The notes under the pieces were generated by a model. The model was not told the origin of the DNA and ran no database searches. It saw only the letters and a program-made list of their open reading frames with translations. This document shows, piece after piece, positions 46,442-50,591 of a stretch of DNA of 64,000 nucleotides (positions are counted from its first letter, which is position 1; each line of letters opens with the position of its first letter). Source of the stretch: Candidatus Thorarchaeota archaeon (GTDB lineage Archaea; Asgardarchaeota; Thorarchaeia; Thorarchaeales; Thorarchaeaceae); contig JBHLQH010000005.1 of NCBI GenBank assembly GCA_048884965.1, positions 64,001 to 128,000 on the forward strand. The letters run 5' to 3'. A program made the translations under genes and the position numbers.

Positions 46442-47875
46442 TCAGGTAATTCCTTTTTGACTCCCCTTTATCCTTCTTCGCAGCCTAAGACGAATCTCAT
46501 TCATTTTCATTGATGCCTTTGTTTTGGATGGCCAGAATTGTTGGATTTCCTGAAATCCCATCACGTCGAAGTATAAGGGACACGCACCATTGCAATAATC
46601 GAAATGCTGACATTCCCTGCACCCCTCTGAAGCGTATTCTTTCTCTCTCCAGAACAATGAGGCTCTGTTGTACCATACTTTCTTGAATCCATCAGTCAAG
46701 ATATTTCCTACTGGCTTGCTAAAACTAGAGCAAGGTAAAACTCCTCCTTCAGGATCAATAGAGATCAACCCGTCGCACGCGGCGCACATCTTAGCTCCTA
46801 GCCCATGAGCTATTGGATTGAATAGACATACAGGTGTAGGAGCATACCACACAAATTGGATTTGTTTCTTCTTTGCTCGCTTCTGAATCCGTTTCACAAT
46901 TTCCCCAATCTCAGAGAAGGTTATCTGAAGCTCGTTCCTCATCTTAGCAGCGCTGCCAGTGTAAATGACCATATTCATACTAAAATACGACAGGCCCAAG
47001 ACATCTGCGTGAAAATCAACTAGTTCTTCAAGTCTGTCAACGTTTGGACGACAGATTGTCGTGTTGCAATGAGTATAGATTTCAGTTTCCCGAAGATTCC
47101 TGATTCCCTGCACAGTTCTATCAAATGCTCCGCTAGTTCCAACAATAAAGTCATGAGTTGCAGCATCAGGTCCCTCGATGGAAACTTGTGCGCTATTGAG
47201 GTCTGCAGCAGCTAGATTCTCAACAAATTTCTTGTCACTGCAAAGCACACCATTTGTGATCAAGTTCATTCGAAGTCCTTTCTCCCTGCCATACTCAATG
47301 AGTTCAAAGATGTCCTTTCGTAGAGTAGGTTCCCCTCCTGTGAAGGATAAGCTCGGGACTTTTGCATCATTGACCAAGATATCGATGACTCTTTTCACCT
47401 CATCTGTCGACAGCTCACCTGAGTCACGATATGGAGAGAAGGCATAGCAGAATCTGCATTTGTTATTACATCGATATGTGAGCGCAATCTCACTAAGGAC
47501 TGGATATTTGATATCTCCTGTTCCAAACGGTAGTATCTTTGCTGTCTGATATGAATAGATGTTTTGATTTCCTGATACAATATTGCGTAAGTCATCGACA
47601 AATGCTGCGAGGTCATTCAGAACCTTCTGATTGTCAACCTCAAATTTAGTTGTGAGTTGCTTCACGACTCCTTCAGGAGTTTCTTCTGCCAATAGCAATT
47701 GCAACATGGTTCTTGCAGTTGCATTGAGATGCATTACTTTGTTGGGACGGAGTATGAGAAGGTTGTCCTCAGGTCGAACAAAGAAATAATCCCTTATCTC
47801 TCTCATGAACTTAGGTACCCATTTTAGATCATCAAAGGTATAATCGTAGTTCTTAGGATAATTTAAGGAGGACAT
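46442..47875 (-). CDS. RRE(PqqD)-radical SAM-SPASM peptide/protein maturase
   Basis: N-terminal RRE: RPEDNLLILRPNKVMHLNATARTML...VVKQLTTKFEVDNQKVLNDLAAFVDDL. Radical SAM core: CNNKCRFC, FTGGEPTLR, ITNG, QVSIEG. SPASM: CAAC...IDPEGGVLPC...GNI...CRECQHFDYCNGACP. Confidence 0.92.
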   Translation of the reverse strand: MSSLNYPKNYDYTFDDLKWVPKFMREIRDYFFVRPEDNLLILRPNKVMHLNATARTMLQLLLAEETPEGVVKQLTTKFEVDNQKVLNDLAAFVDDLRNIVSGNQNIYSYQTAKILPFGTGDIKYPVLSEIALTYRCNNKCRFCYAFSPYRDSGELSTDEVKRVIDILVNDAKVPSLSFTGGEPTLRKDIFELIEYGREKGLRMNLITNGVLCSDKKFVENLAAADLNSAQVSIEGPDAATHDFIVGTSGAFDRTVQGIRNLRETEIYTHCNTTICRPNVDRLEELVDFHADVLGLSYFSMNMVIYTGSAAKMRNELQITFSEIGEIVKRIQKRAKKKQIQFVWYAPTPVCLFNPIAHGLGAKMCAACDGLISIDPEGGVLPCSSFSKPVGNILTDGFKKVWYNRASLFWREKEYASEGCRECQHFDYCNGACPLYFDVMGFQEIQQFWPSKTKASMKMNEIRLRLRRRIKGSQKGIT

Positions 47876-47985
47876 TAAGCCACATCTAGAATACATAGTA
47901 ATTAAGGCTTGGTTCGATTTCAGCATCTGAAAGGCTTATCAAGCTAGATTGATGACTATTGATAACGCTTGGTGGAGAATTTAGT

Positions 47986-48384
47986 ATGAGCGCGAAGGAA
48001 ACCAAACTACCTTACGGAATCATCAAGGATAAGAAACTGATAATGCACTTTAGCGCATACGACATGGATCTTCCTGTCATTGCGGCTGGAATTCGAGAGC
48101 GTTTCGATGTTCTAAAAGAACTAGATGTTGCATTCTCAGGATTTGGAACAGAAGTCCCAGAAAAGATGACTGATCAGACCCCCGCGGTTGTAAAAGCCTT
48201 CTTTGAATATGTTGGGAAGGAGTCAGAGGCTGATGTTATCCTGAAGCGTGTCTATCATCTCATCTGGGGTGGTATGATTCAAGAATTCCCAGACCTACTT
48301 GATTGGGCGACTGCAAAGGGTGATCTATCAAGTCTAACTCATGCGCAAGCTGATATCATCAGGGCACGAAAAGGTGAGGAGTAG
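47986..48384 (+). CDS. Hypothetical cytoplasmic protein, first gene of the operon divergent from the rSAM
   Basis: 132-aa ORF after a GGAG RBS, ending 35 bp upstream of the next gene. Confidence 0.7.
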   Translation: MSAKETKLPYGIIKDKKLIMHFSAYDMDLPVIAAGIRERFDVLKELDVAFSGFGTEVPEKMTDQTPAVVKAFFEYVGKESEADVILKRVYHLIWGGMIQEFPDLLDWATAKGDLSSLTHAQADIIRARKGEE

Positions 48385-48419
48385 ATAGCTCCTATCATAT
48401 CATTGGACGAACATTGGAG

Positions 48420-50591
48420 ATGGGTCCCAATTTGAAGAGAACTCACCGAAGCATTGTCTGTCTTTTCATTGTTGCACTAACAATGATGCCAAGCATTACA
48501 TTTGCGACCGTACTAGCTCAGGCTGCTGAAGTGAACATTGATAGCGTTCGTGTTGAGGTGATTGTCCTACCGAATGGGAGGATCAATGTCACCTACTGGA
48601 TGGAATTCACTGTAAAGAGTGGGTCTCTAGGTGGATTCGACCTATCAGGTATCCAAGAGAGTTCAATCTATGATCCTGCCCGTGCCTATGCAGATTATGA
48701 TGGCACTCACTATCCTTTGGTTATTACACCTTTGGCAAATGGATATGGGCTTGACTGGACTCCTCGAACCCAAGAGGATGAATCCGTCCTCATTGTTTTT
48801 GGATACTTCAGTACTAACAGAATCATCGAAAAAACGACCGCAACTGTCACTCTTGAGGGATCAGGATCTACTGTCACTGGGGATTTTGGCGTTTTTAATT
48901 GGGCTCCTGTGCAATGGGAACAAGAGATAGGATATGAGAGTATCCGCGTTGTCTATCCTATTATAATGGACCCCTCATGGATTACAGGAGAGGGTGGTAT
49001 TACACCAGATGGAGCCGATTATGCAGGTTATGTTGTTGATTCTAGACAAGCTATTGAGGATTCTAACGGGAACTCTTGGGAGTATGATGAAGAGAACCTT
49101 TTGGCTTATCCTTCCTCCGCCAGTGCTTCACCTCGCAACTTTAGTCTAAGTCTTAGATCCAACATCGTTCTCGCATATGACCACTTGCGGGTATTCCACT
49201 ATACTAATTGGAGTTTCTATGAGCCCTTTCTTCAACCTGGCGCATTGTGGTACAGTACTGAAGGATACATGAATGTGGATGCTGAAATCGAATTCGATGC
49301 TAGTATAGCTGTAATAAACATCGGTGATGGCGAACTCGAAGATGTTACTGTTACAATGTCAGTTCCAGAGAATCTTACTTTGACTTCCGGGTCGACATCA
49401 TACTATATTGGACTGCTGGATGGAGGAGAATATGTAACAGTAGAGTATTCTTTCATTCCAGCAAATACTCCTCAAGTACTGACACTATCCTTCTTAGTAT
49501 CCTCATCCGATTTGAATCAATCCCAATGGGTGACATTTACTTTAAGCATCTACGTAAGGGAATTCATCCCTCCCTTGATTCCACCTTCTTACCTCATATT
49601 TGGATTCGTAGGACTATGCGTGTTAGGAGTAGTCTATATCACTTATCGGAGGGTGACCCGACGATATGGAGCAACATGGGAGATAGATGAAACAACGAGT
49701 GTCTATGAGAGTCCTGAGATAGGTATACAGACATTTGGCGAGCCTGGGACGGTCGCAGAACTGGATCCTATCGAGTCTGCTTTCTTTGTCAGTGCAAGTC
49801 GACAAAAGGTAGTATCTATGATTCTAATGTCGTGTGTCCGAAAGGGAGCTGTTCGAATAATCTCAAGCGATCCATTGAAGCTGGTTGATACAGGAATCGA
49901 ATTCGAAGATTTAACCTACTATGAACGGAAGTTCGTCGACGCAATAAGGGATAACCAACTGGACCCTGACAAGTTGGATGACATGCTTGAGGAATTAGCA
50001 GAGAAGGTCCAAGAGAAATCATGGAATGCCGATTTCGATGCTACTCGCGCACACCATGATGAGATGGTCGACGGTGCTTGGAACGAGTTGGAATCCCAGC
50101 CAACCTTGGACGGTCGGACTGATTATTACTTCAATCAGCAATATCACGGAGGATGGGCTTGGTACTGGCTCTATATGCATCCCCATCATGACCGTGATCT
50201 TCCACGTACATTCACCCCTCCTGGTGGAACTATAGCAGCACCTCGTATCCCAGACTGGTTCAGTCAGATGGCGGAAGCTACGGGCAACGTTGTCACAGAA
50301 ACTGGGCGCGTTATCGGAGATATTGGGGCAACAACTGCAAAAATAATGGGGAATGTAGCGAATACAATTGGTACCGTCTTCACTAATGTCGGTGAAATCG
50401 TACGAGCTCCTTTGAAGCCAATTCTTGAAGGCACAAGTCGCTGTGTATCACATGATGCGTGTCACTCAGCATGTGTTTCGCATGATGCATGTCACTCCGC
50501 ATGTCATAGCGCATGTCATAGTGCGTGTGTATGCCACAGTGCATGTCACTCCGCATGTCATAGCGCGTGTGTTTCCGGAGGATTCAGATAG
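48420..50591 (+). CDS. Single-pass membrane protein (DUF2207-like, with a CARDB/Ig-like domain) ending in a Cys/His-rich (CHSA)n tail
   Basis: Signal peptide and extracellular beta domains (V.V.VLPNGRINVTY; NIGDGELEDVTVTMSVP). One TM helix YLIFGFVGLCVLGVVYITY followed by RRVTRR. Cytoplasmic domain LDPIESA...LTYYERKF, then the repeat tail. Confidence 0.85.
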   Translation: MGPNLKRTHRSIVCLFIVALTMMPSITFATVLAQAAEVNIDSVRVEVIVLPNGRINVTYWMEFTVKSGSLGGFDLSGIQESSIYDPARAYADYDGTHYPLVITPLANGYGLDWTPRTQEDESVLIVFGYFSTNRIIEKTTATVTLEGSGSTVTGDFGVFNWAPVQWEQEIGYESIRVVYPIIMDPSWITGEGGITPDGADYAGYVVDSRQAIEDSNGNSWEYDEENLLAYPSSASASPRNFSLSLRSNIVLAYDHLRVFHYTNWSFYEPFLQPGALWYSTEGYMNVDAEIEFDASIAVINIGDGELEDVTVTMSVPENLTLTSGSTSYYIGLLDGGEYVTVEYSFIPANTPQVLTLSFLVSSSDLNQSQWVTFTLSIYVREFIPPLIPPSYLIFGFVGLCVLGVVYITYRRVTRRYGATWEIDETTSVYESPEIGIQTFGEPGTVAELDPIESAFFVSASRQKVVSMILMSCVRKGAVRIISSDPLKLVDTGIEFEDLTYYERKFVDAIRDNQLDPDKLDDMLEELAEKVQEKSWNADFDATRAHHDEMVDGAWNELESQPTLDGRTDYYFNQQYHGGWAWYWLYMHPHHDRDLPRTFTPPGGTIAAPRIPDWFSQMAEATGNVVTETGRVIGDIGATTAKIMGNVANTIGTVFTNVGEIVRAPLKPILEGTSRCVSHDACHSACVSHDACHSACHSACHSACVCHSACHSACHSACVSGGFR
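50442..50591 (+). repeat. Coding 12-bp/18-bp repeat: CVSHDA-CHSA-CVSHDA-(CHSA)3-CV-(CHSA)3-CVSGGFR*
   Basis: Direct translation gives 11 Cys, 9 His and 7 CHSA units in 49 aa. Codons vary synonymously (Ser tca/tcc/agc/agt, His cac/cat, Ala gca/gcg). Confidence 0.95.

Follow-up and report, generated by a model that had tools for sequence, protein, structure and literature searches.

The stretch analyzed here (the window) comprises 64,000 nucleotides from a Candidatus Thorarchaeota archaeon (GenBank assembly GCA_048884965.1, contig JBHLQH010000005.1, positions 64,001 to 128,000; positions below are those of the window). It encodes a radical S-adenosylmethionine (SAM) enzyme carrying a recognition element (RRE) of ribosomally synthesized and posttranslationally modified peptide (RiPP) systems and, divergently, a 132-aa protein and a single-pass membrane protein, termed the carrier, which ends in a Cys/His repeat tail of the (CHSA)n type (Table 1). 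Enzyme and carrier were originally predicted to form a RiPP-like protein modification system. The three open reading frames (ORFs) lie where that prediction placed them, the enzyme on the minus strand and the other two on the plus strand, and each is single copy in the 4.09-Mb genome. The longest enzyme ORF starts at 47926 (494 aa, minus strand) and ends at 46442; the ATG at 47875 (477 aa) was taken as the start because it fits the lengths of homologues. With the ATG of the 132-aa gene at 47986, the predicted divergent intergenic region of about 110 bp is exactly 110 bp long. A promoter scan of this region, using a bacterial consensus, returned only chance-level matches.

Table 1. Positions of genes and features at the enzyme-carrier locus
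Feature	Position	Strand	Remark
241-aa protein, two transmembrane helices, winged-helix (PCI-like) domains, C-terminal zinc ribbon	42620..43345	+	Probable fourth cassette member
RRE-radical SAM-SPASM enzyme, 477 aa	46442..47875	-	Single copy of its clade in the genome
SPASM cysteines C350, C364, C382, C419, C422, C428, C432	46580..46828	-	
CxxxCxxC of the SAM-binding cluster (C136, C140, C143)	47447..47470	-	Invariant in 91 enzymes
PqqD/RRE domain; predicted binding site on the third strand and third helix	47582..47755	-	PF05402, 38.9 bits
Divergent intergenic region, 110 bp	47876..47985	.	Similar spacing in most Thorarchaeota loci
132-aa Cys-free alpha/beta protein	47986..48384	+	Thorarchaeota only; neither precursor nor RRE
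Carrier, single-pass protein, 723 aa	48420..50591	+	Distant DUF2207 relative
N-terminal hydrophobic segment, probable signal peptide, aa 12-30	48453..48509	+	Hydropathy
Transmembrane helix, aa 390-408	49587..49643	+	Hydropathy
Predicted RRE recognition strand, aa 427-440	49698..49739	+	YxxPxI at aa 429-434
Folded cytoplasmic domain, about aa 447-620	49758..50279	+	Weakly GOLPH3/Vps74 (GPP34)-like
(CHSA)n tail, 49 aa, 11 Cys and 9 His	50442..50588	+	aa 675-723; presumed substrate

The enzyme, the carrier, and its Cys/His tail

All three domains of the enzyme passed their Pfam cut-offs (PqqD, 38.9 bits with a cut-off of 23.4; Radical_SAM, 92.2 bits; SPASM, 27.3 bits with a cut-off of 21.5). The enzyme combines a PqqD/RRE domain, CxxxCxxC, and SPASM cysteines in one protein, which is the architecture of RRE-dependent radical SAM/SPASM maturases. 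The RRE and CxxxCxxC assignments made from the sequence are borne out by these matches and by the invariance of the CxxxCxxC cysteines in 91 relatives, among which the RRE residue N51 was likewise invariant and D88 was present in 87. Seven C-terminal SPASM cysteines were also invariant. The last canonical SPASM cysteine is absent from enzymes linked to CHSA-type tails (the CHSA clade), while it is kept by the inspected enzymes linked to the second tail type, (CA)n. The "full SPASM" of the original prediction is therefore inexact, although the domain itself stands.

Hydropathy identified only two hydrophobic segments in the carrier, a signal-like one (aa 12 to 30) and a transmembrane one (aa 390 to 408), the latter followed by a basic RR..RR stretch. 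The single helix and the RRVTRR behind it had been read as placing the tail in the cytoplasm, which is a reasonable interpretation because of this basic stretch and because all five N-x-S/T sequons lie N-terminal to the helix. The quoted letters of the tail, CVSHDA-CHSA-CVSHDA-(CHSA)3-CV-(CHSA)3-CVSGGFR, are exact, and the tail is the sole periodic Cys repeat ending a long ORF in the genome. As expected from the earlier inspection, no separate Cys-rich small precursor was found in the genome or in a comparison across loci that covered ORFs of at least 40 aa.

The tail is under extreme selection. Among 44 Thorarchaeota copies, it showed 99.0% amino acid identity versus 32% identity at four-fold degenerate sites, and synonymous sites are saturated. 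The copy in the window is matched exactly by 33 of the 44, while the remainder of the carrier averages approximately 55 to 60% identity. Bacterial-type relatives with 30 to 40% identity in the cytoplasmic domain retain most of the last 30 residues unchanged, and within the CHSA clade His is as invariant as Cys. Microsatellite slippage was rejected as the origin of the tail, as the synonymous codons are scrambled. Heme attachment at the overlapping CxxxCH motifs was rejected on general grounds, the tail presumably lying inside the cell and (CA)n relatives having no His. Homologues that appeared to be tail-less (P0001 to P0007) were mostly partial genes, and the tail of P0002 lies behind one in-frame stop. 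At loci L019 and L045 (4374 to 4577), one in-frame stop directly precedes an intact tail, reflecting either an assembly error or a real split.

The carrier is distantly related to DUF2207 proteins. The original prediction had mentioned DUF2207-like proteins ending in CACACA...GGGR beside radical SAM genes, and such (CA)n-GGGR relatives, related to DUF2207, were indeed found. A carrier from Anaerolineae passed the Pfam model PF09972 (DUF2207; 27.3 bits with a cut-off of 24.4), and the cytoplasmic model matched DUF2207-labeled clusters from Bathyarchaeota and Chloroflexota with TM scores of 0.58 to 0.62. The window carrier itself matched neither PF09972 nor PF20990, and a direct profile comparison with Escherichia coli YciQ alone was not significant. 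The folded inside domain weakly resembles GOLPH3/Vps74, which occupied the two highest VIA rows and ranks 1, 3, and 5 in Foldseek (Z, 7.6; root mean square deviation, 4.1; 150 aligned residues; E, 0.24). Canonical DUF2207 proteins end in poly-Gly-Trp and have no Cys there. In the (CA)n type, the Cys run is embedded in a Gly-rich stretch of this kind, and GGWG closes one CHSA subgroup; the tail may thus have arisen by insertion into a Gly-rich terminus that was already present in the ancestor. Carriers of 920 to 970 aa at loci L049 and L091 contain an inserted zinc ribbon within the cytoplasmic domain, lack a YxxP match, and have a tail that terminates in GGWG.

Co-inheritance of enzyme and carrier and a predicted docking strand

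Distant carriers, collected by profile search, end in CHSA/CHDA repeats or in (CA)n-GGGR. Among the 38 Asgard carriers from outside Thorarchaeota whose end is readable, 36 were of the (CA)n type and 2 of the CHSA type, and the CHSA type also occurs in bacteria (an Anaerolineae genome and Ozemobacteraceae). Thorarchaeota enzymes cluster with CHSA-linked enzymes, and a single Asgard enzyme clade was rejected by the approximately unbiased test (P = 0.002; a quick tree with long branches). The suggestion that the His-rich variant is the Asgard form of the system is thus not supported. Cys, rather than His, is common to both tail types; the number of Cys in the tails of relatives ranges from 3 to 13, and one tail type (P0034) mixes CHSA and CA units. 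In a Helarchaeota carrier located one gene from the enzyme (L203, 2 to 1360), the tail is shortened to three Cys by an apparent frameshift.

The divergent position of the enzyme was kept in 39 of 39 Thorarchaeota loci with sequence on that side; an exception is the long, gap-flanked locus L036, which has no enzyme. The Thorarchaeota loci alone prove little, because synteny is broad and extends, with almost equal conservation, to racemase and peptidase genes, and linkage was therefore tested in more distant genomes. In 32 of 40 non-Thorarchaeota Asgard carrier loci, an enzyme of the clade was found within 8 kb, mostly directly adjacent. Conversely, of 80 metagenome loci that had been retrieved with the enzyme as the only query, 60 included the carrier or its tail; among the 20 others, 15 had less than 1.4 kb of upstream sequence, too short to judge. 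Searches from either gene thus recovered the partner, as the predicted linkage of this radical SAM clade to the tailed protein implies. Of 301 Asgard genomes, 105 had both genes, 174 neither, 5 the carrier only, and 17 the enzyme only, and the same nine families were positive for the carrier and for the enzyme. Furthermore, a single switch of tail type is seen on the enzyme tree, as on the carrier tree built without tails, and distances in the two trees correlated with a rho of 0.91 (0.87 within metagenome CHSA loci; related sequences are not independent). Enzyme and carrier have therefore long been co-inherited, which in itself says nothing of the chemistry.

Five same-genus genomes (G146, G164, G206, G227, and G248; 74 to 93% complete) all lacked both carrier and enzyme. 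The genome of the window (7.2% contamination) has the pair, consistent with either co-loss in the genus or a contig foreign to the bin. Locus L168 (5919 to 9667) has two CHSA-clade enzyme copies near one carrier.

The RRE of the enzyme is predicted to bind the YxxPxI strand of the carrier just inside the membrane. Lasso peptide RREs bind a motif of the YxxPx(I/L/V) type, and the StsA sactipeptide is bound by its RRE at WxxP (PMC13381572, PMC12710340). The pattern (Y/W)xxPx(I/L/V/M/F) was present directly after the last transmembrane helix in approximately 133 of 144 carriers of both tail types, compared to 26 of 765 background windows; four of 137 automatic matches fell within the transmembrane helix and were excluded. 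The motif is usually followed by a hydrophobic strand, and in the window protein it lies 245 residues before the tail. Y429, P432, and E433 were invariant in the CHSA carrier alignment. In the monomer model, aa 427 to 440 form a low-confidence unstructured coil ahead of a well-folded domain.

When the enzyme was modeled in full together with the entire cytoplasmic part of the carrier, the complex scored 0.84, while the best control scored 0.00; approximately 58 of 80 solved complexes attained the mark for this score, as did approximately 2 of 110 mismatched pairs. The runs shared at least 26% of contacts, with a pLDDT (predicted local distance difference test) value of at least 64 for the partner. 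Confident contacts were mainly those of carrier aa 427 to 440 with enzyme residues 48 to 57, 78 to 99, and 105 to 119, that is, the third strand and helix of the RRE. The tail, which had a pLDDT of <50 in the monomer model and is joined by a low-confidence linker, was not placed confidently in the complex, and both models are neutral on it. It had been proposed to model the RRE with the last ~130 residues of the carrier. Binding of the carrier by the RRE is predicted here as well, but the putative leader lies at aa 427 to 440, after the transmembrane helix.

Other cassette members and neighboring genes

The 241-aa zinc-ribbon protein, which has a Pfam PCI match, is probably a fourth member of the cassette. 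Bacterial CHSA cassettes add a coiled-coil protein of approximately 400 aa and a 163-aa protein with two transmembrane helices, a winged helix, and a zinc ribbon. A profile of the latter had its best match in the genome at 42620 to 43345 (E, 1.1e-6, with others close behind; hhalign, 97.5%). This zinc-ribbon gene was present in 32 of 44 Thorarchaeota loci in addition to the window and lies directly next to the radical SAM gene in L017 and L020. The ~400-aa coiled-coil gene, unannotated and located after the radical SAM gene in L122 to L202, is constant in non-Thorarchaeota CHSA cassettes. In Asgard (CA)n cassettes, the added member is a methyltransferase, joined in some cases by a zinc-ribbon protein with two transmembrane helices. 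No orthologue of the methyltransferase or the coiled-coil partner could be assigned in the genome of the window. In loci L204 to L209 of the Asgard family f12, the clade enzyme and the methyltransferase occur with no carrier nearby, and a different substrate is possible there.

The 132-aa protein was rejected as a precursor or second RRE, as it has no Cys and forms an alpha/beta sandwich. Its alpha/beta fold is a common one (best Z, 7.4), with no Foldseek match and no Atlas look-up result, and no profile match linked it to other cassette genes. The gene, described in the original prediction as part of the carrier operon, is confined to Thorarchaeota. Between a racemase-like gene and the radical SAM gene lie genes for a 163-aa exported protein and a 377-aa helix-turn-helix regulator (44524 to 46155, minus strand). 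This pair recurs on contigs C15, C9, and C3, resembling a duplicated two-gene module, and was rejected as part of the cassette since none of the 44 other loci has it. Two tandem RIO-kinase-like paralogues (39728 to 41361, plus strand) are also present in other Thorarchaeota loci.

Proposed tail modification and comparison with known systems

We propose that membrane insertion of the carrier leaves its N-terminal domains outside the cell and places the ~310 C-terminal residues in the cytoplasm. The RRE of the enzyme is predicted to dock on the YxxPxI strand, which would tether the enzyme to the intact carrier. The radical SAM domain could then abstract hydrogen from residues of the flexible (CHSA)n tail, the presumed substrate, via 5'-deoxyadenosyl radicals. 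Tail cysteines would be joined as thioethers, each with a loss of 2 Da and most simply as one short ring per four-residue unit. The tail might stay on the carrier, where the rings might fix a His-lined metal site or a protein-binding surface, the putative purpose of the modification, and the modified carrier might belong to a membrane complex that includes the zinc-ribbon protein with two transmembrane helices. Cys thioether crosslinks made in place on the intact carrier, like those that CrpC makes on CrpA and QhpD on QhpC, are moderately likely. More tentatively, an enzyme tethered by its RRE to an internal lasso-type leader may stitch the tail into a permanent polycyclic metal-binding or signaling element on an intact DUF2207-derived, GOLPH3-like receptor, a system shared by Asgard archaea and many anaerobic bacteria and possibly involving a new Cys/His linkage.

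Some indication of the type of link comes from residues of the enzyme proximal to the active site. Read by the scheme of PMC10288494, with our own mapping of position 3, positions 1 to 6 are Y144, T179, I206, S232, S383, and S384. The first four (Y-T-I-S) equal those of the proven sactisynthase StsB, and SkfB is equal at three. These residues may lean toward sulfur-to-alpha-carbon links, a weak argument because such residues are not unique to sactisynthase-type enzymes.

Several observations weigh against crosslinking of the tail as proposed. At positions 5 and 6 the CHSA enzyme has S,S where StsB has K,L, and most repeats of the CHSA unit have no Asp/Glu acceptor, unlike PapA, QhpC, and CrpA. 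Among its 25 best of 97 NCBIfam families, the enzyme passed no cut-off. The top raw scores were those of heme biosynthesis families (AhbD, 158.8 of the 500 bits required; NirJ, 152.2 of 500), and scores were likewise below the cut-off for the PapB ranthisynthase (NF047865, 95.1 of 340), StsB (NF045574, 109.4 of 625), SkfB (TIGR04403, 77.5 of 300), and the His-Xaa-Ser enzyme HxsC (TIGR03977, 101.5 of 267.9). The CXXX-repeat maturase (TIGR04115) and CrpC (TIGR04463) families were not among these 25 and therefore scored below 77.5 bits. The result of the complex model may reflect likeness, because solved RRE-YxxP complexes exist. Tail-less DUF2207 proteins have an aromatic-x-x-P at the same place in two of three readable cases, followed at once by an SP motif and no inserted strand, so the docking motif may be partly ancestral. 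A small group of 920- to 970-aa carriers has tail and enzyme and no YxxP match. With regard to linkage, three metagenome loci with more than 5 kb of upstream sequence had no carrier, and 11 of the 17 enzyme-only genomes belong to family f12, in which 11 of 19 genomes carry the enzyme. There, the enzyme adjoins the methyltransferase gene and the carrier is unlinked when present; no f12 carrier was found in five genomes searched by protein or in four searched by DNA pattern, an observation softened by their completeness of 72 to 89%.

A different modification in place, such as crosslinks involving His, epimerization, or backbone chemistry instead of Cys-aliphatic thioethers, is unlikely. The invariance of His alongside Cys in the CHSA clade would fit such chemistry, as would the placement of the enzyme outside characterized thioether families and the divergence at proximal positions 5 and 6, which read S,S in CHSA enzymes and Q,S in (CA)n enzymes and differ from StsB. 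However, Cys and not His is shared by the two tail types, proximal positions 1 to 3 are equal in both enzyme clades, and the P0034-type tail combines both units.

It also seems improbable that the tail is an unmodified metal or iron-sulfur module to which the radical SAM enzyme docks to load, read, or use a cluster, for example for electron or sulfur supply. The near invariance of the 49 residues across domains of life would fit a ligand array, the missing last SPASM Cys of the CHSA-clade enzyme leaves a site open to an outside ligand, and a zinc-ribbon protein probably belongs to the cassette. The variation from 3 to 13 Cys among relatives, however, suits a substrate that is modified processively better than it does a fixed site, and characterized RRE-fused SPASM enzymes modify the peptide that they bind (PMC10288494).

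Even less likely is a true RiPP core that is crosslinked and then cut free from the carrier, as the original prediction had allowed. A protein with an HExxH motif (HEYEH; ~50638 to 51867, plus strand; no Pfam or NCBIfam match) lies downstream of the carrier and could release the tail, which is joined by a low-confidence linker. Its gene was found within a few kilobases downstream in 35 of 44 Thorarchaeota loci as well as in the window but not in bacterial cassettes, and neither a peptidase nor a transporter is a conserved feature of the cassettes of bacteria or of other Asgard archaea. In addition, the tail is not preceded by a conserved cleavage motif, and a folded domain lies within the 245 residues that separate it from the recognition strand. 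It is very improbable that the true substrate of the enzyme is something else, such as a small molecule or an undetected short peptide, with only a shared pathway or genomic neighborhood connecting enzyme and carrier. Some room for this is left by the enzymes of several f12 genomes and a number of metagenome loci, for which no carrier was detected, and by the 40-aa lower bound of the precursor comparison. It is opposed by the linkage seen from both genes, joint loss, congruent trees, the RRE motif of the carrier, and the complex model, and the genome has no other notable Cys-repeat ORF.

Cys thioether crosslinking of an intact protein has its closest parallel in CrpC of Methanococcus voltae, an archaeal enzyme of the same architecture that crosslinks four-residue Cys motifs in the whole protein CrpA (PMC13692751). 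CrpC is likewise an RRE-radical SAM-SPASM enzyme with seven SPASM cysteines, encoded beside a protein with C-terminal Cys repeats, and its recognition site is far from the modified repeats. In contrast, CrpA is a 28.8-kDa protein with ten 17-residue CxxQ/D repeats and an N-terminal leader, while the carrier studied here spans the membrane once, its repeat units have four residues including His (CHSA/CHDA), and its putative leader is internal. The paper on CrpC/CrpA makes no mention of membranes or Asgard archaea. As summarized in the same paper, QhpD, a SPASM enzyme with an RRE, introduces Cys thioethers into a protein subunit, QhpC (PMC13692751). QhpC differs in being small and soluble, with a cleaved N-terminal leader and Asp/Glu acceptors, and no amine dehydrogenase genes are present at this locus.

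The StsA/StsB/StsC system (PMC10288494, PMC12710340) shares the RRE-bound WxxP, a Cys-repeat core, and the proximal Y-T-I-S, and the Gly acceptors of StsA resemble the GGG ends of (CA)n relatives. It differs in its short free precursor, discrete RRE, and hairpin linking CxCxC to GxGxG. Targets of the CXXX-repeat type (TIGR04114, TIGR04117, and TIGR04118) likewise have Cys at every fourth residue of the C terminus and a radical SAM gene beside them, but they are short peptides. The window tail gave no match to these models, and the tails of nine relatives matched TIGR04117 weakly, at no more than 21.8 of 50 bits; the cut-offs of the three models (50, 20, and 35) were not reached. The H-x-S repeats of His-Xaa-Ser targets are not found in the tail, whose units read H-S-A or H-D-A. 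Lasso peptide RREs and leaders (B1 protein, YxxPxL) share the motif and the predicted binding at the third strand and third helix of the RRE, but here there is no lasso cyclase or leader peptidase and the motif is internal to a membrane protein. DUF2207/YciQ proteins (PF09972, PF20990) have the same order of N-terminal outside domain, transmembrane helix, helical inside domain, and Gly-rich end. Unlike the carrier, canonical members are Cys-free at that end, and none of the annotated records inspected had a radical SAM neighbor, one lying beside LemA.

To our knowledge, only a few radical SAM enzymes that crosslink whole proteins, such as QhpD and CrpC, are known. Among those found, none acts on an integral membrane protein or uses an internal leader 245 residues from the modified region, and on the more tentative reading above, the carrier would be the first integral membrane protein to undergo RiPP-style maturation. 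A literature search, mostly without subscription papers, found no published or curated description of the enzyme-carrier system. As the pair is frequent, being found unannotated in several bacterial lineages and in approximately one-third of the Asgard genomes sampled, the modification may be common but invisible; RiPP mining tools would miss it because they seek short precursors. The pair may also provide a first handle on the function of DUF2207 proteins. While apparently belonging to neither the CrpC nor the QhpD family, and not reaching the cut-offs of the CXXX-repeat target models, the system may well work like CrpC/CrpA or QhpD/QhpC.

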